In this document: positions 2,690-34,928 of the stretch, piece after piece | How positions within the stretch are numbered: the first letter of the stretch is position 1 | How the letters are laid out: the number at the start of each line of letters is the position of its first letter | Origin: Patescibacteria group bacterium | GTDB lineage: Bacteria; Patescibacteriota; Patescibacteriia; 2-01-FULL-39-33 | Reading direction: 5' to 3' | Assembly (NCBI GenBank): GCA_041649575.1 | Contig: JBAZMW010000003.1 | Span: forward strand, 58,102 to 122,101 | Length of the DNA stretch: 64,000 bases | Notes under the pieces: model-generated | Database searches by the model: none | Seen by the model: the letters and a program-made list of their open reading frames with translations, nothing else | Told to the model about the DNA's origin: nothing | Program-made: the position numbers and the translations under genes

Positions 2690-3211
2690 TTATCGAAATG
2701 TCCACCCACGTTCTTTTGATAATCCTAATAGATCCAAACATCCAACATTATAAGATGAGTCCTTACAAATATTAGGAATGGTCCATTTTGAGGGTTTAAG
2801 ACTGACCGTATAGCGTTCTTCGGTAATAATTTTTAATCCTTCATGTTTTGCCTGAGCGATTAGCCAAGGATCTGCATGCACTGAACCGATCTTTGCGTTA
2901 ACAAAAGATGAAAATTTTGGTGACATGGTACGTAAAATTTTACCTTCCGCAATTAAATTATAATCCTGAAAAATACTTTTATTTTTTTGTGCCCAATCAT
3001 ACAATTCTATACCTTTCTTACCGTCAGTTTTTATCTCTAATAGAACTTCAACATGAGAAATAATTATTCCCTGTTTAATTAAATCTAAAACATTTGCCCA
3101 AAGTCCCGGAGTAACTTCTTTTGATGACCATCCTGTGCCATTAAAAATATCCATCAATGAACTACTATCGATGGTGTATTCAGCAGGCTTTGAAAAAAGG
3201 TCATTAATCAT
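2690..3211 (-). CDS. PIN-like nuclease-domain protein (DUF4411-like), putative toxin partner
   Basis: N-terminal TIDSSSLMD and C-terminal HADPWLIAQAKHEGLKIITEE fit PIN-domain acidic motifs; about 170 aa; start overlaps the stop of the upstream ImmA/IrrE-HTH gene (3204..3211). Confidence 0.5.
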   Translation of the reverse strand: MINDLFSKPAEYTIDSSSLMDIFNGTGWSSKEVTPGLWANVLDLIKQGIIISHVEVLLEIKTDGKKGIELYDWAQKNKSIFQDYNLIAEGKILRTMSPKFSSFVNAKIGSVHADPWLIAQAKHEGLKIITEERYTVSLKPSKWTIPNICKDSSYNVGCLDLLGLSKERGWTFR

Positions 3212-4394
3212 AGGAATTTAAAACATCTCTAAATCCAGAAATATACCTTCTTTTTAAACCAAGATAATCAGAGACTGTTGAGTAAGAAATTTTATTGTGA
3301 CTATAGGCCTCAATCACTAAAGAGCTAAAAGATTTTCCATTTTTTTGAACAATTGTTTTTAATGAAAAACTGCCACCCGCTTTTCGTTTTGGCATTAATG
3401 ATTTATCCCAAGTTTCAACTTTATCTAAATATATTGATTTTTCAATCAACTTAAAAAATAACATTCTCCTCAATATAACCACTCTACTAACCTTAAAATC
3501 TATGGCTAATTTTCTGACAATCGAATCAAGATCGTCCGAACTAATCTTATTAATATTTCGTAACAAATAATGATTTAAAAAATCATCCTCGGGAACTAAA
3601 AAATTTGCTGCGAATTTATTACAAAATATTTCGACTTTATTAACGTGACCGTCAACATCATCAAATATTTTAAAATTATTACATAATCCAGTCTCACGTA
3701 ATAAAATATGTGCAAACTCATGAGCTAAAGAAAAATTTTTAGCACCCTCATAGTCTTTATTATTTATTAAAATCACATATGGCTTTAAATCAGCGAAAGA
3801 AAAAGCCCTATAGTCCTCCGTGGGGAAAGTATCGTGCAGAACCGCCTTTAAAGTGATCACTCCCGTTGCTTCAATCTTTGACCTAAGGTACTCAAAAAAA
3901 TCTTCATATTTTTTAAACTTAAATTGATCATTTGCGGAAATTGACAATTCGGATCTAATTTTATTGGCTAAGTGCTCGGGATTCTGATCAAGTGTGTATT
4001 TCGGATATTTAAATATTGGTTTTTCTCCCAATTCTTCATAGAGGCTTACTGCTGTCTCCTGTATCTTCCTTGCTTTTCTTATAGCTAGTAAGCCTTTTGG
4101 AGAAATGTCAAAATTATCTTTCGAACCAATAGTTCTGAAATCCGGCAAACTAATCTTCTCTTCAGGTGAATGAGCAAGAAAAAAAACCGCCAATGGGCGT
4201 TTGTATATTTCAGCGAGTTTTTTAATATCTCTAAAAGTGGGCTGAGTCTCACCAGATTCCCACCTTTTTATTGTATCTACTGAGACTTCTTTCCAAGATT
4301 TTCTAAGTTGGGTGGTCAAATTTTCTAAATTAGCACCAAAACTTATTTCTCTTGCCCACTTCAATATTTTTGGTTCAAATATTAAATTTTCCAT
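3204..4394 (-). CDS. HTH (XRE) + ImmA/IrrE family zinc metallopeptidase
   Basis: N-terminal XRE-type HTH (TQLRKSWKEVSVDTIKRWESGETQPTFRDIKKLAEIY) and HEXXH motif (SLAHEFAHILLRE) typical of COG2856/DUF955 peptidases. Confidence 0.75.
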   Translation of the reverse strand: MENLIFEPKILKWAREISFGANLENLTTQLRKSWKEVSVDTIKRWESGETQPTFRDIKKLAEIYKRPLAVFFLAHSPEEKISLPDFRTIGSKDNFDISPKGLLAIRKARKIQETAVSLYEELGEKPIFKYPKYTLDQNPEHLANKIRSELSISANDQFKFKKYEDFFEYLRSKIEATGVITLKAVLHDTFPTEDYRAFSFADLKPYVILINNKDYEGAKNFSLAHEFAHILLRETGLCNNFKIFDDVDGHVNKVEIFCNKFAANFLVPEDDFLNHYLLRNINKISSDDLDSIVRKLAIDFKVSRVVILRRMLFFKLIEKSIYLDKVETWDKSLMPKRKAGGSFSLKTIVQKNGKSFSSLVIEAYSHNKISYSTVSDYLGLKRRYISGFRDVLNSYD

Positions 4395-4454
4395 ATAGAG
4401 TTACTCGAAATAATTTTTTCAGGTATTAATTATCATGTTTAATTTTTGAATAAA

Positions 4455-7400
4455 TTATTTTTCTAGATCCTTAACATAAAATTTACCACCTGAAATATCA
4501 AAAAATCTTTCAAAAAATCTGGTTAGTTTATCTAACACATTATCACGCTTCTGTGTTCTTTCGCCAGTTGGAGAAAATCGAGACACGGGTGGCAGTACTT
4601 TTGAAATTGCCGTTCCCGTTGTTGAGACGCCACCGTCCCTAAAAGCGTTCCTTACAAATGCGTACGTAGCGTCGTGATCAAGATTTTCAGTTTTAATAAT
4701 TTTTTCAAGCTCATCAATCTTTTTTTCTTCGACGAATCGTTGCCAATCTTCATCTACAATCGAGTGAACATCAAGCGACGTAATAAATTGATTAATTAGG
4801 TCTTTTTTATTACGCAGCTCAATACTAGAATCAATCGCCTTATTAATATCAATCAAAAGCTCACGATTTTTTATATGGTCTTCATGATATTTCTTAATAA
4901 GTCCTAACACATAATCGATATTTATTTCTACCTGTTTGATAAGCTCCATTTCAAAAACTACGTCGTCGTTAATGTTCTCTTTTTCTTCATCGGCAATCTT
5001 CCTAAACTCGTTATAAAGATCAATGTACATACTATGATAATCTTGCACGTCTCGCTCAGTCAAAATCTCATTACCCGCAAACTCGTCAAACGTGACAAGA
5101 ATATTACGTACACGCAAAATCGCTCCATATAATTTAATGAATTCTTTTTGATTTTGTTCGCCTACAATTCTTTCTCCAACGGTAAACTTTTCCGTCAATT
5201 CTTTTACCAGACTTTCGTATCCACGTATATCCTTATTTTCATATTTATAGCCATAGTAATAATCCTTATAGGCTTTAAGAAGGACTATTCCACTCGCCTC
5301 TTTATCACCAAAGAGTGAGATGGATTCATTTGTTGCTTTTTCTAGATTACGGAAACAAATAATATTTCCAAATGTTTTTACGCTATTTAGAATTCGGTTC
5401 GTTCTTGAATATGCTTGCAATAAACCATGCAAACGTAAATTTTTATCAACCCAAAGAGTATTAAGAGTAGTCGCATCAAATCCAGTTAAAAACATATTGA
5501 CTACAATAAGAATATCAATTTCTCGATTTTTAACTCGCTCACTTACATCTTTATAGTAATTTTGGAACTTGTCAGAAGATGTATCATAAGAGGTTCCAAA
5601 CATTGCGTTATAATCTATAATTGCACTATCTAAAAAATCTCTTGAGCTAGCGTCAAGCTCGCTTGTATCCTCAGAGTTTTCATCAATCATTCCATCTGCA
5701 TCTTCATCGTTCACTCCAAAACTATAGATAGTGGCTATCTTGAGACGCTTATCACTGGGTACCTCGGCTAACTGTTTTTTAAATTCAGCATAATATTTCT
5801 TTGCCACATCAATAGAGGAAACGGCAAAGATTGAGTTAAATCCTGCTAGCCTCCGGTCTTTAAGTTTATAGAAACTATTACGTTTTGTTTTTTGATCAAA
5901 ATGATCACAAATATATCGAACAATATTCCCTATACGTTCCGGTGCGGCAAGAACTGCCTCACGATCGATATCGCTCACTTTTTTATCTTCAATATTTTCG
6001 GCTTCACGGACAGTAGATACATAGTCCACTTTGAAAGGCAAAACATTCCTATCTGCGATTGCGTCAACAATCGTGTAAGTATGTAATTTATCACCAAAAG
6101 CCTGTTCGGTTGTTTTCAAATCAGGGCGACCACCAGAAGAAGCATTTACGGCAAAAATTGGAGTGCCAGTGAACCCAAAAATGTGGTAATTATTAAATGC
6201 TTTTATAATCGCCGCATGCATGTCGCCAAATTGGGAACGGTGACATTCATCAAAAATCAATACAACGTGGCCGTCAAAAATAGTATGTTCTCCATTACGA
6301 CTAATAAATCGATCCAATTTTTGAATAGTAGTAATAATGATACGTGTATTTGGGTTTTCAAGTTGTTTTTTAAGAACAGAGGTACTCGTGTTACTGTTTG
6401 CGGCACCTTTCTCAAACTTGTCATATTCACGCATAGTCTGATAATCCAAATCTTTACGATCAACAACGAACAAAACTTTGTCTATATAAGATACTTTGCT
6501 TATGAGCTGCGCCGTTTTAAAACTCGTCAGGGTTTTCCCCGATCCTGTTGTGTGCCAAATATATCCACCCGCTTCAACCGTGCCAAGCTTTTTATAGTTT
6601 GTACTTACTTCGATTCGACTCAAAATTCTTTCCGTAGCTACTATTTGATATGGCCGCATCACAAGGAGTAAGCGGTCGGTCGTAAATACACAATACTTAG
6701 TCAGAATATTCAAAAGCGTATGCTTTGCGAAAAAGGTCTTCGCAAAATCCATAAGATCAGTAATGGGACGATTTGTTGCATCTGCCCACCAGCTGGTAAA
6801 TTCAAAACTGTTGCTTGTTCTTTTACCTTTTTTTAATCCGCCCTCGTTTGCTTCTTTAATATGTTCAGAGCGAGTTGTATTGCTGTAGTATTTAGTATGT
6901 GTTCCATTTGAAATAACAAACAGCTGTACATATTCAAAAAGACCAGAAGAAGCCCAAAAACTTTCTTTCTGGTAACGATTAATCTGATTAAAAGCCTCTT
7001 GAATCGCGACACCGCGACGTTTAAGTTCTATGTGAACAATTGGCAAACCATTTACAAGCACCGTTACGTCGTACCGGTTAGCACGCTTACCATTCTCAGT
7101 CGCATATTGATTTATAACTTGAAGATAATTGTCATGAATATTATCTTTTTTTATAAGATAAATATTCTTTGTTGACCCATCGTCACGAGTCAAATTCTTT
7201 ACATGATCTTCTTGAACTGTAGCCGTCTTTTCTTCAATACTTTGATTTGGATTAGCAAGTTCACTCGCAAAAAAATGTTCCCATTCATTGTCAGTAAAAA
7301 TAAATCCATTAAGTTTTTCTAATTGTTTGCGTAAGTTGAGAATGAGATCATTTTCTGAAGTAATCGCAATGTATTCATAAGCCTGAGTTTCTAATTGTTT

Positions 7401-7529
7401 AATAAAGGCCTTTTCAAGTTCTGCCTCGCTTTGATAGTGCGCGACTCTTTTAGCATCAGGAATATACTCCGCGACAACCGTGCTTTGGGTACTCTCCGCA
7501 ACTAAGTTGTATTTTTTCTTAACTAACAT
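4455..7529 (-). CDS. hsdR: type I restriction enzyme R subunit (HsdR)
   Basis: SF2 helicase motifs I (TTGSGKTLT) and II (LIFDECHRS); size 1024 aa; immediately downstream of hsdS/hsdM on the same strand. Confidence 0.9.
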   Translation of the reverse strand: MLVKKKYNLVAESTQSTVVAEYIPDAKRVAHYQSEAELEKAFIKQLETQAYEYIAITSENDLILNLRKQLEKLNGFIFTDNEWEHFFASELANPNQSIEEKTATVQEDHVKNLTRDDGSTKNIYLIKKDNIHDNYLQVINQYATENGKRANRYDVTVLVNGLPIVHIELKRRGVAIQEAFNQINRYQKESFWASSGLFEYVQLFVISNGTHTKYYSNTTRSEHIKEANEGGLKKGKRTSNSFEFTSWWADATNRPITDLMDFAKTFFAKHTLLNILTKYCVFTTDRLLLVMRPYQIVATERILSRIEVSTNYKKLGTVEAGGYIWHTTGSGKTLTSFKTAQLISKVSYIDKVLFVVDRKDLDYQTMREYDKFEKGAANSNTSTSVLKKQLENPNTRIIITTIQKLDRFISRNGEHTIFDGHVVLIFDECHRSQFGDMHAAIIKAFNNYHIFGFTGTPIFAVNASSGGRPDLKTTEQAFGDKLHTYTIVDAIADRNVLPFKVDYVSTVREAENIEDKKVSDIDREAVLAAPERIGNIVRYICDHFDQKTKRNSFYKLKDRRLAGFNSIFAVSSIDVAKKYYAEFKKQLAEVPSDKRLKIATIYSFGVNDEDADGMIDENSEDTSELDASSRDFLDSAIIDYNAMFGTSYDTSSDKFQNYYKDVSERVKNREIDILIVVNMFLTGFDATTLNTLWVDKNLRLHGLLQAYSRTNRILNSVKTFGNIICFRNLEKATNESISLFGDKEASGIVLLKAYKDYYYGYKYENKDIRGYESLVKELTEKFTVGERIVGEQNQKEFIKLYGAILRVRNILVTFDEFAGNEILTERDVQDYHSMYIDLYNEFRKIADEEKENINDDVVFEMELIKQVEINIDYVLGLIKKYHEDHIKNRELLIDINKAIDSSIELRNKKDLINQFITSLDVHSIVDEDWQRFVEEKKIDELEKIIKTENLDHDATYAFVRNAFRDGGVSTTGTAISKVLPPVSRFSPTGERTQKRDNVLDKLTRFFERFFDISGGKFYVKDLEK

Positions 7530-8781
7530 ATTGATTAAAAGTTAAAAGTTTATTTCGGTAGTATTCATATTGACACCTGCGTGCAGAAAGCTCTGCAGGC
7601 AAACCGATTGATATATCGTTCAAAAGTGCGTCAAACTTATCTAAAATTTCCACGATGCGATTTTGTTCCTCAATCGGCGGGGTTGGGATTTTGAATTTTG
7701 TGAATTCCTCTTTTGTAATTGTTTTTATCGTGCTTCCACGAGCCGTTTCTTTTTCAACAGAAAATTTTCTTTCAAGCTGATATGCGAAATACTTCTTATT
7801 GATATTTACCTTAAACCTCTCAAAAATTGCAAGGGTGCGATCAACATAACTGTCATATTGAGTGATAGCGACTCGACCGATACTTCCCTGCAAAGTTACT
7901 ATAACTGTTCCAGCAGGCACAAAAACACTTTTGGGTTGAGCTAATCTTGAAATTTTTTGTTTTGTATTTTCAACAAGTTGCATATTTTTACCAACATCTG
8001 CGACTTGAACAAATGGCATTGCGCCTTCTCCGCCATACCATCTACTTTCACCATAAGGCTGTGGAAAAGAACCGCGACGATAATCTGCTATTTCACCCAA
8101 CGTTTTCCATTGCACCTCATTGCCTTCAAATCCTAAAAGCTGATTACGATAATACCCATATTGCATCTCTCTCGCCTCCAGCTCCGCCTCCAGCTCCGCC
8201 TCCAGCTCCGTAAATCTATTAAGAATTTTAGCAATTTCTTTTTGTATTTCAAGTGGCGGAAGAGGAATTTTAAACTTTTTAAATCCACTCATATCTACAG
8301 AAGAAAAACTTGACGTTGTTGTATTATTTCGACACCACTCATCCAATAAGTAACAGTAATAGTAGACAAATCGCATGTCGAATTTATCTGCATATTCTGG
8401 CTTTAGGACAAGCGAATTAAACCTCTGATTTGCAAGATGTGGAACTGTAATTAGTGCGTGTTCACCAATAGTAGCAGACGTCGTGATAATAATAGAATTT
8501 GCGGGAAATAGTCTACCGCCTTTCACAGCAATTTCAGGAATGTGCTGAACTGAATCATCTAGTATGTGCCCATTCTCTCTAATATCTTCCATGCGGAACC
8601 AAGGAATGTTGCCACCCGCCCAATATTCTGGTTTTGCCTTTGATGGTGTGTAGCCGTTTTTAATATCAAAAATTTCTACTAAGTCCCTAAACTCCACTCC
8701 GTTCGGGCATAACTTGGCAATTAGCTGTTCAATTTTATTTATAGGTTTAGTCATGCTATTTTTTTCTTTCAATATCGGCAA
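7519..8781 (-). CDS. hsdS: type I restriction-modification specificity subunit (HsdS)
   Basis: two target-recognition-domain halves with duplicated conserved regions (LEAREMQYGYYRNQLLGF / LSARRCQYEYYRNKLLTF); central ELEAELEAELEA repeat. Confidence 0.85.
   Translation of the reverse strand: MPILKEKNSMTKPINKIEQLIAKLCPNGVEFRDLVEIFDIKNGYTPSKAKPEYWAGGNIPWFRMEDIRENGHILDDSVQHIPEIAVKGGRLFPANSIIITTSATIGEHALITVPHLANQRFNSLVLKPEYADKFDMRFVYYYCYLLDEWCRNNTTTSSFSSVDMSGFKKFKIPLPPLEIQKEIAKILNRFTELEAELEAELEAREMQYGYYRNQLLGFEGNEVQWKTLGEIADYRRGSFPQPYGESRWYGGEGAMPFVQVADVGKNMQLVENTKQKISRLAQPKSVFVPAGTVIVTLQGSIGRVAITQYDSYVDRTLAIFERFKVNINKKYFAYQLERKFSVEKETARGSTIKTITKEEFTKFKIPTPPIEEQNRIVEILDKFDALLNDISIGLPAELSARRCQYEYYRNKLLTFNQYVS
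8164..8199 (-). repeat. 3 x 12-bp tandem repeat (gcctccagctcc) encoding (ELEA)3 in the HsdS central conserved region
   Basis: three perfect tandem copies seen directly in the sequence. Confidence 0.9.
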
Positions 8782-10345
8782 CTATTTCATCAATAGAGGC
8801 ACGGAGCTCATTCTGTCTTGCGACTATTTTGGTAATCTTTTTATTAAGTTCCACAATGTCCACTACTTCGCGAGTATCTTCTCCTACAACATAGCCTGAT
8901 ACAGCAATATTATAATCATTCTCTGCAATGACTTTATTATCAATGAGTTTTGCAAAATACTTCGTATCTCTACGAGCGCTGAATGCTTCTAAAATCTTTA
9001 AACGATTTGTCTCGCTTAATTTATTTTTATTGCCACCATGAACAAACTCGGCAGAGGCATCTATAAAAAGTGTTTTATTATCTTTCTTGCTCTTTTTAAG
9101 CACGATGATGCAAGTGGCAATAGATGTACCGAAAAAAAGATTGGGCGGTAATTGTATAACAGCATCAACATAATTATTATCTACAAGATATTTTCTAATC
9201 TTCTGTTCTGCACCACTACGATAAAGAACACCAGGAAATTCAACAATCGCCGCAGTTCCATTCGTCGATAACCATGAAAGCATGTGCATAGTGAAGGCAA
9301 GATCAGCATAACTCTTTGGCGCCAATACTCCTGCCGGAGAAAAGCGCGGATCATTTATTAGGATAGGGTTTGCGTCGCCATCCCAGTGAATTGAATACGG
9401 TGGATTAGAAACAATAGCATCAAATGGCTCATCATCCCAATGCTTCGGGTCGACGAGAGTATCACCGTGTGCAATATCAAAATGATTATAATTAATATCA
9501 TGCAGGAACATGTTAATGCGACAAAGGTTGTAGATAGTAAGGTTGATTTCTTGCCCAAAAAACCCTTGCCTAACATTTTCTTTCCCTAAAACCTTAACAA
9601 ATTTAAGAAGCAAAGATCCAGAACCGCAAGCAGGATCGTAAACCTTATTAACTTCCTTTTTGCCAACGGTTGTAATTTCAGCGAGAAGCTCACTGACTTC
9701 CTGTGGTGTAAAAAATTCACCACCTGATTTTCCTGCATTTGCGGCATACATAGTCATCAAAAATTCATATGCGTCACCGAAGGCATCTATAGTGTTATCG
9801 GAGTAATTTCCGAGCTTAAGATCACCGATTGATTCAAAAAGTTTTGTGAGTTTATGGTTTCTTTTTTCTACCGTGTTTCCAAGTTTATTGGAGTTTACAT
9901 CAAGATCATCAAACAAACCCTTAATGTCATCCTCACTGTTTGCGCCTTTCGCAGAATTTTCAATATTACGAAAAACGGCAGTAAGAGTTTCATTAAGGTT
10001 AGCGTCATTTCGAGCATTTTTTCTAACATTTATAAAAAGCTCACTTGGTAAGATGTAAAAACCTTTTTCTTTGACTGTATCAGCTCGACCGAATTCGGCT
10101 TCTTTATTGGAAAGTGTAGCGTAGTCAAAATCCTTATTACCAGCACGGCGTTCATCAGCATTGATATAGTTGGTAAGGTTTTCGCTAATAAAGCGATAAA
10201 AAAGTATCCCAAGCACATACTGCTTGAAATCCCAGCCATCAACACTTCCACGTAAGTCATTTGCAATCTGCCAAATAGCACGGTGCAATTCTGAACGCTC
10301 CTGTTCTTTAGTTGTGTTCAAATTTTTATCTTTGATGTTAGCCAT
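8756..10345 (-). CDS. hsdM: type I R-M N6-adenine DNA methyltransferase (HsdM)
   Basis: motif I DPACGSGSLL and motif IV VSNPPYS; HsdM N-terminal domain; overlaps hsdS start. Confidence 0.9.
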   Translation of the reverse strand: MANIKDKNLNTTKEQERSELHRAIWQIANDLRGSVDGWDFKQYVLGILFYRFISENLTNYINADERRAGNKDFDYATLSNKEAEFGRADTVKEKGFYILPSELFINVRKNARNDANLNETLTAVFRNIENSAKGANSEDDIKGLFDDLDVNSNKLGNTVEKRNHKLTKLFESIGDLKLGNYSDNTIDAFGDAYEFLMTMYAANAGKSGGEFFTPQEVSELLAEITTVGKKEVNKVYDPACGSGSLLLKFVKVLGKENVRQGFFGQEINLTIYNLCRINMFLHDINYNHFDIAHGDTLVDPKHWDDEPFDAIVSNPPYSIHWDGDANPILINDPRFSPAGVLAPKSYADLAFTMHMLSWLSTNGTAAIVEFPGVLYRSGAEQKIRKYLVDNNYVDAVIQLPPNLFFGTSIATCIIVLKKSKKDNKTLFIDASAEFVHGGNKNKLSETNRLKILEAFSARRDTKYFAKLIDNKVIAENDYNIAVSGYVVGEDTREVVDIVELNKKITKIVARQNELRASIDEIVADIERKK

Positions 10346-10349
10346 AAGA

Positions 10350-10556
10350 TTATTTTAATAATTCGTCAACTGATACGTCTAAGGCTTCAGCAATTCGTTC
10401 CATGGTCGCTAAGGTTGGATTCTTCTTACCGCTTTCAACATTACTAAGATAGGCACGATCAAGTCCCAACTTTCTGCATAAGTCGCCTTGTGTCATACCC
10501 TTTTCCTCTCTGATTCTACGGACATTAATGCCTAATTTTCTTGATGAATTTGTCAT
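10350..10556 (-). CDS. XRE-family HTH transcriptional regulator (possible controller protein of the R-M operon)
   Basis: 68-aa HTH_XRE (MTQGDLCRKLGLDRAYLSNVESGKKNPTLATMERIAEAL) 4 bp upstream of hsdM. Confidence 0.7.
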   Translation of the reverse strand: MTNSSRKLGINVRRIREEKGMTQGDLCRKLGLDRAYLSNVESGKKNPTLATMERIAEALDVSVDELLK

Positions 10557-10714: not shown

Positions 10715-10787
10715 TGGCAGGGGATGTAGGAATCGAACCCACGCATGCGGTTTTGGAGACCGCCGTACTACCACTATACGAATCCCC
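10715..10787 (-). tRNA. tRNA-Trp (anticodon CCA)
   Basis: manual fold: acceptor GGGGATT, D arm, anticodon stem GCGGT/ACCGC with loop CTCCAAA, T arm GGTTCGATTCC; 73 nt; 3-prime CCA encoded. Confidence 0.8.
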
Positions 10788-11023
10788 CAAATTAACAGTT
10801 AACTATCAATACTTAATAATTAACTGTTAAAAGATTATTTAGTTTCCTTGTGTGGAGTGTGTTTCTGACAATGCCGGCAGTATTTTTTCATCTCCAATCG
10901 ATTTTTGAGCAGCTTTTTGTTTTTTCTAGAAAAATAATTGACGCGTTTGCAGACAGTGCACTCCATTTTAATCATGTTGTCTTGGGACATAAAAATATCT
11001 TATTATTTTTTAACTAATTTATT

Positions 11024-11096
11024 TAGCCGGCTCTCGGATTCGAACCGAGGACCTACGGTTTACAAAACCGTTGCTCTACCACTGAGCCAAGCCGGC
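11024..11096 (-). tRNA. tRNA-Thr (anticodon TGT)
   Basis: manual fold: acceptor GCCGGCT/AGCCGGC, D arm GCTCAGTGGTAGAGC, anticodon stem ACGGT/ACCGT with loop TTTGTAA, T arm GGTTCGAATCC. Confidence 0.8.
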
Positions 11097-11286
11097 GCGT
11101 CAGGCGGGCGGGCGAAATCGTTGCTCTGTCAGTTGAACTACGTTGGCTCTAGACCAACCCTGGCTGACCCGTTAATTTAACTGGTTTATAAATCAAAATG
11201 CGATTTTATTCTAACATAAAAAACTCGATTTTACAATAATCTTAGCTATTTACAATTTTTATCTAAAATAAGAATGTTTTTAAACC

Positions 11287-11315
11287 TTGACAAAATAAAA
11301 ATTAAATTATATAAT
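11287..11315 (+). promoter_or_regulatory. perfect consensus sigma70-type promoter TTGACA-N17-TATAAT
   Basis: ttgaca (11287-11292), 17-nt spacer, tataat (11310-11315); followed by a leader hairpin caggcttcaaaaagcctg and RBS GGGGAGG before the ATG at 11404. Confidence 0.6.
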
Positions 11316-11403
11316 AATATATGCTCTTTATAATTTGGATTTTGATAGTCTAATCCGAGGACAATAATTCAGGCTTCAAAAAGCCTGGGGGAGGATAAGT
11401 TAG

Positions 11404-13008
11404 ATGCAAGCAATACTGGAAGCGATCGAAACCGGCCTAGTAAGGGGCTGTGGAATATCCCTGACCGAGGCGATGAGTTCGCCACGATTCGTAAAGCTGC
11501 TGGCGAGGCAAAAGACCCTCTTTGAGCGTTACCCTAAGGACACTCACCGAGGAATCGCCCTAAGAGCCGGACATCTGGTCATGGGCCAGTTACTCAACAC
11601 CATGCCGGAATCGAAAGCTTTAGCCCAAGCTCGACGGATCAAAACACCGAAGTTCGGCTGCGGTATTGAGCTGCGCGCGCTGATCCAATTCTTTGGCGAA
11701 GCGCTAATTGTCGAAGCTGGCAAGTGCCTGCCAGACGAAGTGCTTGAATTGGCCAAGGAGTGGAGAGCGGCCACGGCGGAGAGACAGATTGAAATAGTCC
11801 GAGAACTATTCTTCATCTTTCGGTCGAAGAAACAAGGCGATGACCAAGAGATCATGACCCTCGCTCACGCTGAGCAAGATCTTATCCGTAAGGCCATGGA
11901 AAAGTGGAATCGAGGGTCTGACGCGCGAGATGTTTTACCAAGACTCTATGGCAAGTGGGACAGTAATTGTCCGGCTAACTGTCAGGGTAAGACGCAATTG
12001 CTAGTCGCCTTCGCGCACCTCGCCGGAACCAAGGCAATGGTTGTCAACGCTCTAAGCGACGGAGTACATGAGCTGTGGCGGTTAAGGGGTGAGTTGGCCG
12101 ACGCCATCTCTCAAGACATCAGACGGCGCGGCCTAGGCGGAGTCAGCTCGGAATTTGATGACAGCCTGGCTGGTCATCATTTCGCCGAGATTTTCAGGGA
12201 AAAGATTCGGGACTTCCATGTCGGTACGGCTTTGAGGCTAGGCGACGGGCGCTGGATCCTAATCGACCCGCACGCTCTTGCCTGGGGAGTTTTCTCTCCG
12301 CGCTGGCAGATGAACGAAACTCACCGACTGCTCCGAAAATACGCTGAAGTTTTGCCCGGACTGACGTTAACCCGCGATGATGGCGGAGAGGTCACGGACA
12401 AAATCAAGGCTAGGGCCGAAGTGTCTTACGACTTGATCGAGCGGTCGCGAAAGCTCGAGATTTTGCTTCGCGAACAGGTTCACTCCATGTCAGACTTCAT
12501 CGACATCGTTAAGGACTCAGAAGATTTCGATTTGCTGATGCGCCTCAACGCCGAACATGAAAGAACGACTTTTGTCCCATGGACCGATCCGAAGATAAGG
12601 TTTCTCGGCGTCGCTTCTGTGGTAGCCGGTGGAATGGACAAGCTCCATGACTTTCGGGCCATGATAGACCCAAAGTACCTAGAGCAACAAATAAAGTTGT
12701 GGCTATCATTCTACCACTGCGTGGCGGCCAATCACTTAGCGAACCAACTGGGTGACAATGGCGAGTTGGTCCATCTGGTTTGCGAGTTCAACGCCAGCCC
12801 GGAATACTATTTGGCACTGTCGGCGACCAACAGCATCATCGTGCGAGAAGATGAAGAGTCGGAATCGTTCTTCATTGATTACGGTTTCGACCAGCTCACT
12901 CTTTATAACACGATGATCCGGCGAAAGGAAGCGGCGGTCGCGGCGGCGGAGGTCGTCAAAACTCTGCCGTTTGTGCATGAGAATATGCGCACCAGATTTG
13001 GAATCTAA
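11404..13008 (+). CDS. hypothetical protein encoded in a GC-rich island (possible transglutaminase-like Cys-His-Asp core; speculative)
   Basis: 534-aa ORF in a region of about 56% GC with a strong RBS; NCQGKTQLLVAFAHLAG, HHFAEIF and GRWILIDPH loosely resemble the C/H/D motifs of transglutaminase-like cysteine peptidases. Confidence 0.55.
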   Translation: MQAILEAIETGLVRGCGISLTEAMSSPRFVKLLARQKTLFERYPKDTHRGIALRAGHLVMGQLLNTMPESKALAQARRIKTPKFGCGIELRALIQFFGEALIVEAGKCLPDEVLELAKEWRAATAERQIEIVRELFFIFRSKKQGDDQEIMTLAHAEQDLIRKAMEKWNRGSDARDVLPRLYGKWDSNCPANCQGKTQLLVAFAHLAGTKAMVVNALSDGVHELWRLRGELADAISQDIRRRGLGGVSSEFDDSLAGHHFAEIFREKIRDFHVGTALRLGDGRWILIDPHALAWGVFSPRWQMNETHRLLRKYAEVLPGLTLTRDDGGEVTDKIKARAEVSYDLIERSRKLEILLREQVHSMSDFIDIVKDSEDFDLLMRLNAEHERTTFVPWTDPKIRFLGVASVVAGGMDKLHDFRAMIDPKYLEQQIKLWLSFYHCVAANHLANQLGDNGELVHLVCEFNASPEYYLALSATNSIIVREDEESESFFIDYGFDQLTLYNTMIRRKEAAVAAAEVVKTLPFVHENMRTRFGI

Positions 13009-13038
13009 CGGCGGAAAAACAACGAGAGACGAGAGGAG

Positions 13039-13341
13039 GTGCAGACAGATATGATAGACACAAGGAGCTTTTCGCGAGAAGCCAAGGAATTGATGCGCCT
13101 GTGCCCTGTAAGTGAACACAGCGGGGAACCCACTGGTACGGACATCTCCACGGTAATTGCCGAACACCCCGAGCTCGTTTCAGGACTCTCCCAATATGTT
13201 TCCTGGGTCCGGGAGGTGGGCATGGCCATTGCGGAAACAACGACAACTCCGGCGATTGGCCACCCGGTTGCCAAGACTGTCCGGAAGGTACAGGCCCACG
13301 CCAGCGACGGCGACAAACCGAAATCCGAACCCCGCACCTAG
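13039..13341 (+). CDS. hypothetical small protein (100 aa), second gene of the GC-rich island
   Basis: RBS GAGGAGG 8 nt upstream of the ATG; same strand and composition as the upstream gene; a terminator follows. Confidence 0.35.
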   Translation: MQTDMIDTRSFSREAKELMRLCPVSEHSGEPTGTDISTVIAEHPELVSGLSQYVSWVREVGMAIAETTTTPAIGHPVAKTVRKVQAHASDGDKPKSEPRT

Positions 13342-13363
13342 TTGCGGGCGTACACAACACACA

Positions 13364-13406
13364 AAGCCCTGTCCGGCAGTAATGGACAGGGCTTCTTAAT
13401 TTTTAG
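13364..13406 (+). terminator. rho-independent terminator (aagccctgtcc ... ggacagggctt + T-run)
   Basis: 11-bp perfect stem with 10-nt loop followed by cttaattttta. Confidence 0.65.
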
Positions 13407-16603: not shown

Positions 16604-17623
16604 TTAAAAAACCCGTTCTAACTTATATAGCCAATAATAATTTAATAATCTCTCACGCACCTTATGACCATTGCCGTGGCTTAACAGCCCTAAATATGAT
16701 TGCAAAGTCGCGTTAGTCGGACTAATCTTAATTCTATTTATGGACTTTCTCTTGGTGGTATTCCGCAATACCCGATGGTCAGTAAAATGAACCCAACCAA
16801 GATAATCAACTCCCGAGGCCATTGTTCTTATGGATATTTTATTGGGATGAAGAGTGAGCTTTAATTCCTTAGACAAAAATTGACCTATTTCTGGTAATAT
16901 TTTTTCTAGATACTCTTTGTCGTCATTGAGAACCATAAAATCATCGGCATAGCGCAAGTAATATTTCACTTTTAATTTATGTTTTACCCATTGATCAAAA
17001 TCATTCATGTAGACATTGGCCAGTAGTTGCGAAGTGAGATTGCCAAGTGGCAGCCCGATATCCTGGCCGTAAATCTTACTATCATAACTCTCAATTACCT
17101 CGTCGAGCAGACTCATAATATCTCGGTCGGGAATATAGCGGGATAAGCTATCCATAAGGATTTTATGATCGATACTGTCAAAAAATTTCCTGATGTCACA
17201 TTTCAAAACCCAGCAGGTGCGAGAGTGATTTTTGCTTGTTTTGTAGGCCAAAGCACGGAATCTGTTCATCGCTTTATGCATTCCCTTATCATTGCGGCAA
17301 GAGAAAGAATCGGCGATAAAAGTCCTGTCAAAAAAGGGATAAAGAATTCGATAGATAGTATGATGAATCAAGCGGTCGCGGACGCTGGCTTTGTGGATAT
17401 GCCGACGCTTAGGATCGGTTATATAGAAATCAACATAGCCGCCATGACAGTATGTTCGATTGGCCAAATCCTCGTTTAATGATAAAATATTGTCGAGCAG
17501 GTTACGAGAAAATATTTGGACGTCCAGCTTCATTTTTTTGCCAACGATAAATTCTCGCCACGCGGAAAATAAATTTTCTAAATCAATAATCGAATTATAG
17601 TTATGGCTCAGTTGGATTTTCAT
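16604..17623 (-). CDS. DGR-type reverse transcriptase
   Basis: RT motifs including YADD (RYADDFMVL) and the DGR-specific GLPLGNLTSQLLANVY ([IV]GxxxSQ); N-terminal LENLFSAW. The start is chosen at the internal ATG (MKIQLSH...) downstream of the G10 tract; the track ORF extends to 17683. Confidence 0.85.
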   Translation of the reverse strand: MKIQLSHNYNSIIDLENLFSAWREFIVGKKMKLDVQIFSRNLLDNILSLNEDLANRTYCHGGYVDFYITDPKRRHIHKASVRDRLIHHTIYRILYPFFDRTFIADSFSCRNDKGMHKAMNRFRALAYKTSKNHSRTCWVLKCDIRKFFDSIDHKILMDSLSRYIPDRDIMSLLDEVIESYDSKIYGQDIGLPLGNLTSQLLANVYMNDFDQWVKHKLKVKYYLRYADDFMVLNDDKEYLEKILPEIGQFLSKELKLTLHPNKISIRTMASGVDYLGWVHFTDHRVLRNTTKRKSINRIKISPTNATLQSYLGLLSHGNGHKVRERLLNYYWLYKLERVF

Positions 17624-17639
17624 AATAATTCCTTTAAGT

Positions 17640-17649
17640 CCCCCCCCCC
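17640..17649. repeat. homopolymeric C10/G10 tract in the RT 5-prime region / avd-RT divergent intergenic region
   Basis: 10 consecutive C on the plus strand; lies about 17-26 nt upstream of the proposed RT start codon. Confidence 0.9.
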
Positions 17650-17674
17650 AACGGGTTTTGATAATTTTCCAATT

Positions 17675-17995
17675 TTGACGCAATTAAAGGAAGGGTATAA
17701 ATTGTGGCACGGCTTCTTAAATCGCCTGCCTCGCACTACGCGCTATACTCTGGGGACAAAAATCGATAATATCTTTACGGATTTAATTGCCACCGCCTTA
17801 ACCGCCAAGTTTGCCAGACAAGATGAAAAAATTATCAGGCTAAAACAAATCAGCGAGGGTCTTGATCATCTCAAATACTTTCTGACGATACTGTGGGAAA
17901 TAAAAGGGATAGACAGTGGCAAACTCTCCGCTTTGGGCAGTCGTCTGGCTGCCGTCGGAAAAATGGTCGGCGGATTACTCAAGTCAATTTCATAA
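17675..17995 (+). CDS. Avd-like accessory variability determinant (four-helix-bundle / 23S-IVS protein family)
   Basis: LPRTTRYTLGTKIDN and LGSRLAAVGKMVGGLLKSI match the FPKEEKYxLGxQIRR ... LxxLIKSL pattern of the four-helix-bundle family used as DGR Avd. The start is uncertain: TTG at 17675 or 17702 (the track ORF starts at 17603 and would overlap RT). The gene is on the strand opposite to RT, TR and target. Confidence 0.55.
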   Translation: MTQLKEGYKLWHGFLNRLPRTTRYTLGTKIDNIFTDLIATALTAKFARQDEKIIRLKQISEGLDHLKYFLTILWEIKGIDSGKLSALGSRLAAVGKMVGGLLKSIS

Positions 17996-18040
17996 AAAGG
18001 AAAAGAAGGTCTCAAAAACCTTCTTTTCCTTTTTATTTTC
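17996..18040. terminator. perfect 15-bp stem hairpin (aaaggaaaagaaggt / accttcttttccttt, 7-nt loop) + T-run
   Basis: starts 1 nt after the avd stop codon and lies 16 nt 3-prime of the TR on the other strand. Confidence 0.7.
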
Positions 18041-18047
18041 ACATCAT

Positions 18048-18155
18048 CAGGAGCACGAAGCCGATATTGTCGTTGCCATTCTCGTCCCAGTTGTTGCAGT
18101 TGAGCCCGTTGTCGTCGAAGTTGCCAGCAATGAGACGATTGCCGTCGTTCAAGGT
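18048..18155 (-). repeat. DGR template repeat (TR), 108 bp
   Basis: aligns to 18606-18713 with 21 mismatches; 20 of them are adenines on the minus (sense) strand of this copy. Read in the VR frame it encodes TLNDGNRLIAGNFDDNGLNCNNWDENGNDNIGFVL with 10 AAC/AAT codons. Confidence 0.85.
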
Positions 18156-18158
18156 CAA

Positions 18159-18557
18159 TCAATAGTTGTGAATATTGTCTTCCAAAACACCGCCCATTGA
18201 GTTCTCTCTGGGCTGAACCGTATTTGGGGTCATGAGCCCACCAACAATAAACACGGGGTGTGAAAAATGTCCTTGGGATAATTTCCTTGCTCTGGCGCGA
18301 TCCTTAGACAACGCCATTCGGAAGAATAAATTACCTTGTTCTGCGGGCTGGCGTCCGTGGAGACCAGCTAAGTTTAACTTCGCAGTAATGGTAATTATAT
18401 CACAATCGAAAATTTTTATGAAGATAGATATCTGCATTAGCTCCTCGGCTCGAAAATTTAAAAGATTACTTTTACATTTCTCTCGCTCTACGTCGCTTAT
18501 AAAAAAGAGAGGCCTCGGTGCGATGACCAAGGTCTCAAGTGTCCAAGTGTCCAACAA
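18159..18557 (-). CDS. hypothetical ORF between VR and TR (coding status doubtful)
   Basis: 132-aa ORF at the position where avd usually sits, but no four-helix-bundle-like sequence; may be non-coding TR-upstream sequence. Confidence 0.2.
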   Translation of the reverse strand: MLDTWTLETLVIAPRPLFFISDVEREKCKSNLLNFRAEELMQISIFIKIFDCDIITITAKLNLAGLHGRQPAEQGNLFFRMALSKDRARARKLSQGHFSHPVFIVGGLMTPNTVQPRENSMGGVLEDNIHNY

Positions 18558-18581
18558 TCCGAGGCGAGAGCGCCAAGGATC

Positions 18582-19310
18582 CTACTTACCGAGCTTCTCC
18601 ACCCCCAGGAGCACGAAGCCGATCATGCCGTCGCCACCCTCGCCCCAGTCGCGGCAGCGGAGCCCGACGCCGCCGAAGCCGCCAGCAATGAGACGACTGC
18701 CGTCGCGCAAGGTGTCAGACGCCATGTAGAGACGATTCAGCGGTACACGTTCGCCCGTACGCTTGAAATGCGCGAGGATAAGAGCGAACTGAAGCTGAAT
18801 CGAGCCGAATGTTGTGGCGTGATTACCGGGCAATTCGTAGCGCTGTTTGAGTTCGGCGCGGTGCTTTTCCATCGCTTTGATGTTCTTACCCGTGCTGTTT
18901 TCTGCCAGGCGAGGAATCCAGAACACCAAGCAATCGTCGGTGGGGTTGTCGTTGAAATTCCAGCTCTGGAGGTAGCCGAGATTCTCGTAGCAAGGACCGA
19001 CAATCGGGGCGTGCTTCTTCAACGTGAAGCCCTGCTTGATAAGCCATACAACAGGCCCCGTGTAGCCCATCAGAGCCGCCAGTTTACGCCAGGGGGCGAG
19101 ACGGTCTGTGAACTGTGGGAACTGCTCCAGCATCTTACTATCGGATAAGGGAATGGCGAAAGTATTCGCGATTTCTTCTTGCACGAGTGCGGCGAGGAAC
19201 TCTTTCACCTTTCCTGGCTTATCGGCAAAAACCGACATCTCTTCATCGCTGAGGCCATTAAGTGTGGCCAATACCGATACTGCACTTGCCTTACGGTCTG
19301 TCGTCTTCAT
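18582..19310 (-). CDS. DGR target (variable) protein, C-terminal VR; likely C-type-lectin / FGE-like fold
   Basis: 242 aa, about 58% GC; VR occupies the last about 43 codons before the stop (...GFVLLGVEKLGK*); the TR carries AAC codons at the variable sites. Confidence 0.8.
   Translation of the reverse strand: MKTTDRKASAVSVLATLNGLSDEEMSVFADKPGKVKEFLAALVQEEIANTFAIPLSDSKMLEQFPQFTDRLAPWRKLAALMGYTGPVVWLIKQGFTLKKHAPIVGPCYENLGYLQSWNFNDNPTDDCLVFWIPRLAENSTGKNIKAMEKHRAELKQRYELPGNHATTFGSIQLQFALILAHFKRTGERVPLNRLYMASDTLRDGSRLIAGGFGGVGLRCRDWGEGGDGMIGFVLLGVEKLGK
18606..18713 (-). repeat. DGR variable repeat (VR), 108 bp, at the 3-prime end of the target gene
   Basis: TR homolog in which TR adenines are replaced by G/C/T; encodes TLRDGSRLIAGGFGGVGLRCRDWGEGGDGMIGFVLL; followed by GC-rich GGGGTGGAGAAGCTCGG (IMH-like). 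Confidence 0.85.
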
Positions 19311-19512
19311 AACTTGCCTTTCTGCCTACCTGAGGCAGTATTCCCAACCACCATGGCCGAGAAAAAGATGGGGCATTCAGTGGTCCCAACTTTCTTTCTG
19401 CATAATTTACCCTGTAGGAATAGGCACTCAAATTCCACAGGGTTTATCTTAAATTAAACAAAAAGAAAGCTGGAACCTAAAACTTATCAATATATTAATG
19501 AACTAATAATAT

Positions 19513-19541
19513 ATTATACGGCATATGACAAAATTTGTCAA
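19513..19541 (-). promoter_or_regulatory. perfect consensus TTGACA-N17-TATAAT promoter upstream of the DGR target gene
   Basis: on the minus strand: TTGACA (19541-19536), 17-nt spacer, TATAAT (19518-19513); about 200-nt structured leader to the ATG at 19310. Confidence 0.55.
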
Positions 19542-32932: not shown

Positions 32933-32961
32933 TTGACATTTAATTTTGGATATGATATAAT
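32933..32961 (+). promoter_or_regulatory. perfect consensus TTGACA-N17-TATAAT promoter of GC-rich island B
   Basis: ttgaca (32933-32938), 17-nt spacer, tataat (32956-32961); RBS AAGGAG then ATG at 33027. Confidence 0.6.
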
Positions 32962-33026
32962 TATATATTGGGTCGGCATCGCGCTGACTCGAGATTTTGG
33001 ACATTTTCAACCAAGGAGAAAGAGAA

Positions 33027-33380
33027 ATGAAACGATTTTTCAGCTTTTTGGAGCGGCTGTTCGCCGGCCTGAGTGCGATAGCTCTACTGCTCGGCCTGAT
33101 GTTTGTGGCCGGCATCTGTCTATCGCTGCCCTGGTACGGCTGGATTGCCAGCTTCCTGGCCGGCATCTTCACCGCAGGGATAAGAGTGATCCGCTGGCCG
33201 ATCAAAATCGCCTTGCTGGTAATCTGGGGGCCGATGATCATGGCTTTCGGCTACTACATCGTCTTCCCGATGGTCGGGCCGGTGAGTATCGTGCAGGGAG
33301 CGATCTGCTGGGTGATATTCATCACGGCGTTTGTGATGGCTCGCTGCGCCGCCGGCATCAAGGACATGCCAACGGACTGA
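33027..33380 (+). CDS. hypothetical small integral membrane protein (island B gene 1)
   Basis: AAGGAG RBS 7 nt upstream; about 4 TM helices (FAGLSAIALLLGLMFVAGICLSLPWYGWIASFLAGIF ... ). Confidence 0.5.
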   Translation: MKRFFSFLERLFAGLSAIALLLGLMFVAGICLSLPWYGWIASFLAGIFTAGIRVIRWPIKIALLVIWGPMIMAFGYYIVFPMVGPVSIVQGAICWVIFITAFVMARCAAGIKDMPTD

Positions 33381-33437
33381 AAAGGCCTATGAGCGGTGCC
33401 TTTGAAAACCGCTTAAGACAAAGAAGGAGTTGCAACC

Positions 33438-34055
33438 ATGATAGAACCTGTTGGTGTTATATTGTGCGGTATAGTGATCTTGGTCCTTGGGGTTGGGTGG
33501 AGTCTAATCTCAAGGAAGAGTCTGGAATTCTTCAGTTGCGTGACACTGGTGGTGCTGGCTGTCGGCCTGTACTTGTCAGTGTCCGATCACCAAATCCCCA
33601 AGACGTCATGGGGAGCCACCACGCCGGGCGCGATGATGCCCTACGACCAGAAACAAGCCACCGACGCGTTCGACGCATCGGCGAAGCAGGCACAAGGAGC
33701 TACAGGGTGTAGCGCCGGAGCAGAGCAAAGGACCGCTGTGACCGCACTGACCCGCGACGAAGAGACGGCGCTGGCCAGACAACGGAACGCAGCGGCCGCC
33801 CAAGAAAGCGGTGAAACAACCGCCGACAAGTGGCCGATGAAGGAGCTAGCCATCACTCCGCTGAGCAAGTGGTTTAACCAAAGGGAAAGCAAGGGGGGCT
33901 GGTCTTCCGTAAACTATGGCTCGTACCGGTGGGTGCGAGTGGATGATAGGCTGGGACTGCAGTCCCATACGGTATATGGCTGTGTGATTTCCTTCGTGCC
34001 AGAGCCGCCGGCCACGCCAGCGACAACGGCCGAAACAAAGGAGGACAAGCCATGA
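33438..34055 (+). CDS. hypothetical membrane-anchored protein (island B gene 2)
   Basis: AAGGAG RBS; two N-terminal TM helices then an Ala/Thr/Gln-rich soluble region; stop overlaps the next start (ATGA). Confidence 0.5.
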   Translation: MIEPVGVILCGIVILVLGVGWSLISRKSLEFFSCVTLVVLAVGLYLSVSDHQIPKTSWGATTPGAMMPYDQKQATDAFDASAKQAQGATGCSAGAEQRTAVTALTRDEETALARQRNAAAAQESGETTADKWPMKELAITPLSKWFNQRESKGGWSSVNYGSYRWVRVDDRLGLQSHTVYGCVISFVPEPPATPATTAETKEDKP

Positions 34056-34219
34056 CCACGACATGGTGGCAAGAATTGGGACGATATGAGTACGAGATTG
34101 AAGTCGGAGAGAACGGCGGCCAACACTACACCGGCCGCCATCGCTGTGTTGGCGGACAATTGGCAGATGGCCGGTGGCCGATCTTTGGTGACAAGTCTGG
34201 CGAGACGGTTTACGCCTGA
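34052..34219 (+). CDS. hypothetical 55-aa ORF (island B gene 3), translationally coupled
   Basis: ATGA overlap with the upstream stop; MTTTWWQELGRYEYEIEVGENGGQHYTGRHRCVGGQLADGRWPIFGDKSGETVYA. Confidence 0.25.
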   Translation: MTTTWWQELGRYEYEIEVGENGGQHYTGRHRCVGGQLADGRWPIFGDKSGETVYA

Positions 34220-34232
34220 AAGGAGACGCGCC

Positions 34233-34586
34233 ATGCAATTCGTACTGAAAGTTGATGACGGTGTGAAAGAGCCGCCGACGCTGCGGGATGCCATCCTGGC
34301 GGCTAAGAAGCTGGCCCACTATGACGCCTTGGTGGCTTTCCTGGCCACTCAGAAAATGACCGAGCCAGGAAGAAAGCGACTGGCCGCTAACGCGGTAGTG
34401 GAAGCAATTGGCCACCTCTGGGTGCAGCCGCCAGGCAAGTGGGCCCAACAAGTGCGAAGTTTTGTGGCGGTCGAAGTTGGCGTCAATAGCGCCATAACGC
34501 TTGAAGACTCCCCGTGTCTCGACTTCCCTGTCTTCAACGTGGAGCCAGAGCGGCCGCCCTCGGTTCCGCCCGAACCCGAGTCCTAA
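34233..34586 (+). CDS. hypothetical protein (island B gene 4)
   Basis: AAGGAG RBS 8 nt upstream of the ATG at 34233 (the track ORF begins earlier at 34086 in the same frame); ends 15 nt before the terminator. Confidence 0.4.
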   Translation: MQFVLKVDDGVKEPPTLRDAILAAKKLAHYDALVAFLATQKMTEPGRKRLAANAVVEAIGHLWVQPPGKWAQQVRSFVAVEVGVNSAITLEDSPCLDFPVFNVEPERPPSVPPEPES

Positions 34587-34600
34587 CCGTACATTCGATC

Positions 34601-34645
34601 CCCTGGGGTTGCGCACTTGCGCGACCCCGGGGTAATTTTTTTATA
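34601..34645 (+). terminator. rho-independent terminator (ggggttgcgc-actt-gcgcgacccc + T-run)
   Basis: 10-bp GC stem (one G-U), 4-nt loop, then ggggtaattttttta; near-identical to 30934-30975. Confidence 0.7.
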
Positions 34646-34928
34646 AATAATATTTTTTACTATCTTTCTTTTTCTTTTTTAGAATATTTAATTTTATTAG
34701 TTTTAAAAGTTACTTTAGATAAAAATGACCACTAAAAAATTTAGAAACAAAATCAAGTAATTAGAGCGTTCCGCCTTCCGGGCGGAAATTTATAACTGTT
34801 TGAAAACCCCGCCTGTAAGGCGGGGTTTGAGTTTTATAAATTAGCGATAATTGCGCTAGATTTTGTCTAAATTTTTTAATGGTCAGAGTTTTTGCGCTAC
34901 TTTTTGCGGCCAAAAAGTAGCAATGGGC

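Follow-up and report, generated by a model that had tools for sequence, protein, structure and literature searches.

The stretch analysed here, referred to as the window, comprises 64,000 nucleotides (64 kb) of a Patescibacteria group bacterium (assembly GCA_041649575.1, contig JBAZMW010000003.1, positions 58,102 to 122,101 of the forward strand), and the element of interest is a two-gene cassette located on the plus strand at positions 11287-13406 of that window. The cassette contains a gene coding for a 534-amino-acid protein followed by a gene coding for a small protein, together with a promoter, a leader and a terminator of its own (Table 1), and it appears to constitute an autonomous transcription unit. 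Judging from the sequence and from the predicted structure, it is fairly probable that this unit specifies a transglutaminase-like cytoplasmic enzyme and its dedicated small partner, and that it belongs to an accessory cassette spread horizontally among Patescibacteria.

Table 1. Features of the two-gene cassette, given as positions in the 64-kb window.
Feature	Position	Strand	Description
Sigma-70-type promoter TTGACA-17 nt-TATAAT	11287-11315	+	12 of 12 consensus positions matched
Leader/operator-like motif TTTTGATAGTCTAAT, consensus TTTTGAYAnnnnAAT	11340-11354	+	Aligned across 10 cassette leaders
Leader hairpin CAGGCTT-caaa-AAGCCTG, 7 bp	11370-11387	+	Stem read in the sequence; abuts the Shine-Dalgarno
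Shine-Dalgarno GGGGAGG	11388-11394	+	Read in the sequence; 9 nt upstream of ATG 11404
Large gene, 534-aa protein	11404-13008	+	N-terminal helical region, transglutaminase-like core, C-terminal helical region (predicted)
Putative catalytic core, residues 175-330	11926-12393	+	Invariant triad, predicted fold, Transglut_core register
Putative triad codons	Cys193 11980-11982; His272 12217-12219; Asp288 12265-12267	+	Invariant columns
Shine-Dalgarno AGGAGG of the small gene	13034-13039	+	Read in the sequence
Small partner gene, 96 aa	13051-13341	+	LSxEA...HPEL..GL..Y..W...GH; homologues found downstream of the large gene
Intrinsic terminator	13364-13404	+	Read in the sequence; 12-bp stem (7 G-C pairs) and T run

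An initial annotation of this region, made from the sequence alone, had described a perfect promoter, a 7-bp leader hairpin, a GGGGAGG element, an open reading frame (ORF) of 534 amino acids and a terminator, and all of these were recovered. Perfect TTGACA-N17-TATAAT promoters are found three times in the window, including that of the cassette, and with at most one mismatch five were observed against 0.61 expected. The second ORF had been given as 100 amino acids long; such an ORF does exist from GTG 13039, but ATG 13051, which lies 11 nucleotides past AGGAGG, agrees with the public gene call and yields 96 amino acids, is the likelier start. The leader had been called structured, which holds for the hairpin stem but not for the leader as a whole, since its folding energy was not exceptional when compared to shuffled sequences (z = -0.55). 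A search of the leader against Rfam matched no RNA element, and no counterpart of the hairpin was seen in the leaders of relatives that were inspected. The consensus signals, taken by themselves, suggest that the cassette is strongly expressed.

The native 534-amino-acid protein gave no match in Pfam, NCBIfam, PHROGs, PADLOC or the sequences of the Protein Data Bank (PDB). A word-indexed search has revealed close relatives in 40 clusters at 90% identity, all of them metagenomic, 520-570 amino acids long and annotated as hypothetical proteins, and the few organism labels among them were Patescibacteria, Paceibacterota or Taylorbacteria. When 1.84 billion representatives were searched exhaustively with a profile, the family grew to 335 proteins at E <= 0.001, 136 of them at E <= 1e-30; the nearest homologue is 55% identical over the full length, or 64% identical over 69% of the query. 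A cluster look-up of the taxonomy of distant members returned a single label, Melainabacteria. In an alignment of 98 diverse members, with a mean column identity of 14%, the sole invariant columns were C193, H272, D288 and P318, and the same four columns were recovered in a second alignment of 86 members. The initial annotation had singled out three short motifs as loosely reminiscent of a transglutaminase-like Cys/His/Asp triad, and this was largely right: the cysteine of NCQGK is Cys193, the histidine of the HHF...FHV segment is His272 and the aspartate of LIDPH is Asp288. A structural zinc site formed by the other conserved cysteines and histidines was considered and rejected, as those residues are conserved within the candidate phyla radiation (CPR) subfamily and not family-wide. 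Weak matches to DUF5495, present in 4 of 36 members, were regarded as noise.

An AlphaFold2 model computed with the family alignment (predicted local distance difference test, pLDDT, 92; predicted template modelling score, pTM, 0.91) describes a mostly helical protein with a central alpha/beta core. In the predicted core, Cys193 is the first residue of a helix (193-207) that is followed by a strand (211-218); His272 opens a second strand (272-278), Asp288 closes a third one (284-288) and a fourth strand (293-296) comes next. Two inserted helices at residues ~220-265, an insertion of ~50 residues, are placed between strand 211-218 and the histidine strand. The papain-like core has been defined by a cysteine at the N-terminus of a helix with the histidine and a polar residue on the next adjacent strands (PMC10318531), and the model shows this arrangement. 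The cysteine-protease-like fold on which the initial annotation depended is thus present in the prediction, in which the core matches papain/transglutaminase secondary-structure positions.

Transglut_core (PF01841) was the only Pfam family recurrently matched by individual members, 3 of 36 in one set (best E 7.7e-4) and 5 of 86 in another. The family consensus reached 17 bits against this model, whose gathering cut-off is 23, over profile positions 50-108, which span the cysteine to the aspartate. Excision of the insertion in silico raised the core of the family consensus to 23.7 bits (E 6e-5), slightly over the gathering score; the corresponding values were 18.7 bits for the CPR-subfamily consensus and 14.5 bits for the window protein, and Transglut_core was the best match in all three cases. 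At the level of sequence, these spliced constructs explain the sub-threshold native scores, short of proving membership. With the Transglut_core superfamily the protein shares the Cys-His-Asp order, the cysteine at a helix N-terminus and the histidine and aspartate on successive strands, and its motifs PNC(L/Q)GK..L.AFARLAGA and FH.A....L.DG.W...DP parallel the core motifs. It differs in its native scores, which stay below the gathering threshold, in the ~50-residue two-helix insertion before the histidine strand, and in the helical regions of ~170 and ~200 amino acids that flank the core and have no detectable relatives. In our reading, the large protein would represent a very divergent transglutaminase-like branch, distinguished by a new insertion and by flanking helical regions that are also new.

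Structural comparison was less informative. Foldseek returned no significant match, whether the full model was compared with the PDB and with viral structures or the separately predicted core with the PDB. The weak list obtained with the full model was enriched in transglutaminase folds (Rad4, TG2, factor XIII and 3isr, probability 0.51), and the core-only search against the PDB gave mostly proteasome and N-terminal nucleophile (Ntn) noise. The lack of a significant structural match, together with a native sequence below all family thresholds, would also be expected if the cysteine, histidine and aspartate were structural or metal-binding residues of a non-enzymatic helical scaffold. This is very improbable, because they are the only invariant polar residues of a very divergent family, occupy canonical secondary-structure positions and lie in motifs that keep the Transglut_core register.

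For the transglutaminase-like enzyme, the following mechanism is proposed. Cys193, which opens the core helix, would provide a thiolate that is activated by His272, itself oriented by Asp288, and that attacks a peptide, isopeptide or gamma-glutamyl amide bond with formation of a thioester intermediate. The thioester could then be resolved by water, in which case the enzyme would act as a protease, amidase or deamidase, or by an amine, in which case it would act as a transamidase. Most prokaryotic transglutaminase-like proteins are considered hydrolases, and hydrolysis would be the likelier outcome for a prokaryotic member. No transmembrane or hydrophobic segment and no signal peptide were found in the large protein, and no hydrophobic segment in the small one; because neither carries a hydrophobic segment, both proteins are probably cytoplasmic.

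The second gene shows a constant association with the first one. At every locus whose contig extends beyond the large gene, an ORF of 72-96 amino acids lies directly past it, with a gap of 0-30 nucleotides or an overlap, and in several loci the stop and start codons of the pair overlap or nearly abut. Alignment of the small ORFs gave four invariant residues (A11, P40, L42 and H71) within the motif LSPEAQ.L ... NPEL..GLDEY.KW ... GH. A profile built from 14 of these ORFs also detected the partner in four complete loci that had not contributed to it. All 26 complete loci of the CPR subfamily (~17 unique) carry the partner behind the large gene, and it was found nowhere else in the fetched loci. 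In a database of 5.8 billion proteins the partner family consists of 33 standalone proteins of 72-104 amino acids, never fused to another domain. No relative of the partner was found in Pfam or the PDB. By profile, no partner is recognisable at L027-L030, which carry distant members of the large protein on contigs that are GC-rich or not labelled as CPR. From this sequence evidence, the small protein is a strict, apparently obligate partner of the large one in the CPR subfamily. It would be made in step with the enzyme, most likely forming a 1:1 complex with it. Three roles are conceivable, that of an activator or chaperone, that of an inhibitor or immunity factor and that of a substrate, and the data favour none of them over the others.

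The third of these roles is linked to the possibility that the enzyme is a true cross-linking transglutaminase and not a hydrolase, with the lysine-rich tail of the partner, or the glutamines and lysines of other proteins, as substrate. The Cys-His-Asp core is of the transglutaminase type, and the C-terminal tail of most partner orthologues is rich in lysine and arginine, as in PPKKRKKK. The tail is, however, acidic or missing in the small protein of the window and in those of L019 and L021, the partner contains no invariant glutamine, and the prevailing view of the prokaryotic members mentioned above favours hydrolysis, so that cross-linking seems unlikely.

Some individual loci deserve mention. 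In L014 (9944-11862) the large gene appears to be interrupted, since its ORF has 343 amino acids whereas tblastn similarity extends as far as residue ~504; the partner gene is kept. This may correspond to a pseudogene or to an assembly error. Short GC-rich contigs that had been binned outside the CPR also carry members of the family: L022, labelled Bdellovibrionales, with a complete pair at the GC content of its host (57%); L027, labelled Deltaproteobacteria; and L029, with a protein labelled Melainabacteria. These three contigs could be misbinned, or they could be pointers to a GC-richer reservoir.

Base composition sets the cassette apart from the window. The initial annotation had contrasted about 56% guanine plus cytosine (GC) with a background of about 40%; the contrast is real, with corrected values of 52.4% for the interval 11287-13406 and 53.9% for both ORFs together (53.1% for the large and 57.8% for the small one) against 42.0% in the rest of the window. 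GC at the third codon position (GC3) was 0.615 in the large ORF and 0.649 in the small one, compared with a mean of 0.447 (standard deviation 0.093) for the ORFs of the window, and all codon positions were raised. The 2-kb window placed over the cassette was the strongest tetranucleotide outlier of the 64 kb (z = 3.9) and the second strongest for dinucleotide relative abundance (z = 3.0). The codon-usage and tetranucleotide analyses therefore bore out the atypical composition that had been suspected.

The same tendency is seen in other hosts. The GC content of the cassette exceeds that of its flanks by 5-16 points in 14 of 20 unique loci, is within ~2 points of them in six and is never clearly lower (Wilcoxon p = 0.002, 18 loci); examples are the window cassette (+13), L001 (+12), L017 (+15) and L050 (+12). 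GC3 carries much of the excess in L001, with 0.475 in the cassette versus 0.17-0.29. A high GC content is not intrinsic to the family, because six loci sit at host GC. The gene neighbourhoods are unrelated between loci and include a Clp ATPase, a sigma factor, sortases, a deaminase, TrmB, an ABC transporter, a radical SAM protein and an OMP decarboxylase. A family pattern matched 16 of the 185,579 species-representative genomes scanned, a number that is limited by the pattern and hence a minimum. Neither paralogues nor co-occurrence with the other GC-rich blocks of the window were found. Lack of synteny, rarity and the atypical oligonucleotide signature fit the idea of repeated transfer out of a pool richer in GC, followed by amelioration that is still incomplete, and support the view of a foreign, accessory cassette that would have spread horizontally among Patescibacteria and kept its GC-richer composition in the window genome. 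In two unrelated loci, L001 (10096-10668) and L050 (9229-9735), a gene for an extracytoplasmic function (ECF)-type sigma factor was observed just past the cassette, which may be a coincidence.

A long-resident, vertically inherited CPR gene pair, whose high GC content and consensus signals would result from selection for strong expression, has to be weighed against transfer. The pair is present in several Patescibacteria lineages, six loci are at host GC and the GC content of the module correlates with that of the host (r = 0.54). Moreover, the three perfect promoters of the window precede its three GC-richest blocks, so that a GC-rich composition could track strong expression. Nevertheless, the ORFs of the size of EF-Tu, EF-G and ribosomal proteins in the window have an average GC3 and no GC enrichment, which argues against a pure expression effect. 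In addition, GC is raised at the first, second and third codon positions of the cassette, its dinucleotide signature is atypical, the family is as rare as described above, with no synteny between loci, and one of the other two GC-rich blocks corresponds to the target gene of a diversity-generating retroelement, and elements of this type are known for horizontal movement. Vertical descent is consequently regarded as an improbable account of the cassette.

Both parts of the favoured interpretation, a transglutaminase-like enzyme on a transferred cassette, have points that weigh against them. As to the enzyme, the native window protein matches no Pfam or NCBIfam model, the Transglut_core score above threshold was obtained from an artificial spliced consensus, and the placement of the triad was read from predicted secondary structure. 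As to the transfer, no donor is identifiable, given that even the closest homologue shares only the 55% (full-length) or 64% identity indicated above, and neither an integrase, attachment (att) repeats nor plasmid or phage relatives were found, the latter in IMG/VR, INPHARED and PLSDB. In a metagenome scan, the closest relatives of the adjacent Clp ATPase gene were only 47% identical over the full length. No cassette was found within 7 kb of these relatives, which at 47% identity or less are too distant to inform on its presence or absence. The initial annotation had proposed a recent horizontal acquisition, of which the horizontal part is sustained by the atypical composition, the GC excess in 14 of 20 loci, the patchy distribution and the unrelated neighbourhoods; "recent" is unproven because there is neither a close sister genome nor an identifiable donor.

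The position beside tRNA genes, which had been taken as a further sign of acquisition, did not stand up. Like tRNA-associated genomic islands, the window cassette is atypical in composition, lies on the opposite strand to its neighbours and adjoins tRNA genes. Unlike them, it adjoins tRNA-Thr(tgt) (11025-11096) at the 5' end and not at the 3' end of the tRNA, there is no integrase or recombinase ORF between 10.3 and 16.2 kb, and a search for flanking direct repeats, including a 3' fragment of the tRNA, gave only short repeats at chance level. The other homologous cassettes are not adjacent to tRNA genes. Integration targeted to the tRNA was rejected on these grounds.

Expression signals were compared among the homologous cassettes. 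The consensus TTTTGAYAnnnnAAT is present in 10 leaders, ~10-30 nucleotides downstream of the -10 box, in cassettes whose encoded proteins are merely 35-40% identical. Its single match in the 64-kb window is the one in the cassette leader, and at least one chance match occurred in 35 of 100 shuffles. This element could be a DNA operator or an element of the 5' untranslated region, and its conservation suggests regulated rather than simply constitutive expression. All loci examined have a -35 box of the form TTGACA, TTGACT or TTGCAA, a spacer of 17-18 nucleotides and a TAnnnT -10 box that is mostly TGn-extended, and a stem-loop with a T run was found behind the small gene in all homologous cassettes examined. 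An operator-like palindrome, TTGACnnnGTCAA, overlaps the -35 box in five cassette loci; at L019 it also marks two further promoters and may be a general promoter form of that genome. The leader motif and the palindromes together give a hint of regulation. At L019, TTGACA(A/T)AGTCAA with a TGn-extended -10 box was observed at three promoters within 14 kb (2670-2682, 4965-4977 and 6887-6899), and near the palindromes there are two large paralogous unannotated ORFs (461 and 409 amino acids) and a short ORF that is ParB-like by eye, so that this may be a mobile region.

These motifs bear on a further explanation, a selfish cassette of the toxin-immunity or addiction type. In that case a papain-fold toxin (protease or deamidase) would be neutralised by the coupled partner, promoter and leader would mediate autoregulation, and the patchy mobile spread would derive from post-segregational or conflict functions. 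Such a cassette would be tightly coupled, self-promoted and self-terminated, with variable locations and a foreign composition, as found here, and would agree with the palindromes over the -35 box, with the conserved leader motif and with the unannotated genes, including the ParB-like ORF, that surround the L019 copy. Its layout would also resemble, by analogy, that of staphopain-staphostatin and SpeB-Spi, operons in which a papain-like protease is co-transcribed with a small inhibitor: the enzyme gene comes first, followed by a specific partner of ~100 amino acids in tight co-expression. The proteases of those operons are secreted zymogens, whereas the window proteins have no signal peptide or transmembrane segment and show no homology to them. 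Furthermore, neither protein matched a toxin, antitoxin, immunity or defence family in PADLOC, Pfam, NCBIfam or PHROGs, no secretion or trafficking domain is present, a type II toxin would be expected to be shorter than 534 amino acids, no DNA-binding fold is recognisable in the small protein, and the two additional L019 promoters indicate that the palindrome may be a general promoter feature there. Taken together, a selfish cassette of this kind appears rather doubtful.

A known enzyme of these bacteria offers another comparison. CPR-C4 is a cysteine protease of CPR bacteria, the single characterised one with a transglutaminase-like fold, and had been missed by sequence annotation; it has 221 amino acids and a Cys-His-Leu(carbonyl) arrangement, and forms a homodimer without a partner (PMC9108980). 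Vasohibins require the small helical binding protein SVBP (PMC9108980), and the large-plus-small pairing of the window cassette may be regarded as a functional analogy to them, an idea rather than a result. The third triad residue of the window family, an invariant aspartate, is different; no sequence-profile match to CPR-C4 or vasohibins was found in the PDB, and no entry of either was among the top 50 Foldseek hits in the PDB. By sequence, CPR-C4 and the window protein are members of different families. A bolder version of the favoured interpretation, possible but tentative, is that the enzyme is gated by its obligate small protein, either an activator like SVBP or an inhibitor as in toxin/immunity pairs, and that a mobile, autoregulated cassette has repeatedly reached AT-rich hosts from a GC-richer unsampled reservoir, the pair being found so far only in Patescibacteria-type contigs.

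Other features of the window were also recorded. A segment of 60% GC directly 5' of tRNA-Thr(tgt) (11097-11172, minus strand) resembles the 5' half of a tRNA: it includes a D-arm-like GTAGTTCAACTGACAGAGCAAC as well as a 13-mer that, but for one mismatch, is found again within tRNA-Thr. No gene was predicted there by ARAGORN or Rfam, and the segment may be a decayed tRNA remnant. The region 2690-10556 has a low GC content (0.32-0.38) and a strongly atypical dinucleotide signature, and by eye is similar to a type I restriction-modification system, with a 529-amino-acid ORF carrying an NPPY methyltransferase motif, ORFs of 420 and 1024 amino acids and an HTH_3 regulator at 10350-10556. This low-GC region begins immediately beyond the 3' end of tRNA-Trp (10715-10788) and may be a separate island.

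The diversity-generating retroelement mentioned above extends over 16604-19541, mostly on the minus strand, with an RVT_1 reverse transcriptase (16604-17683), a bAvd-like accessory ORF (17603-17995, plus strand) and a template repeat (~18048-18155). The matching variable repeat, which differs from it at template adenines, is located at the 3' end of a GC-rich target gene of 242 amino acids (18582-19310). This gene adjoins tRNA-Tyr and tRNA-Thr(ggt) and is preceded by a perfect TTGACA-N17-TATAAT promoter of its own (19541 to 19513). The third block (32933-34700, plus strand) has a GC content of ~0.56-0.58 amid minus-strand genes and includes ORFs of 127, 205 and 166 amino acids, which matched nothing in Pfam and had no relatives among the fetched loci. 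Each of the perfect promoters, at 11287, 19513-19541 and 32933-32961, precedes one of the three GC-richest coding blocks of the window.

Patescibacteria have tiny genomes in which most of the accessory genes are unannotated. This analysis would not reveal a new kind of biology unless the relationship with the partner or the mobility proves unusual. It would place a new, unnamed family, which counts 335 cluster representatives and is not covered by any model of Pfam, NCBIfam, PHROGs or PADLOC, in the known transglutaminase/papain-like superfamily, with an explicit putative triad. The GC excess maintained across many hosts would represent a clean case for gene flow into CPR genomes, and since the family appears to travel as a self-sufficient cassette together with its own dedicated partner, what was a "hypothetical protein" becomes directly testable.

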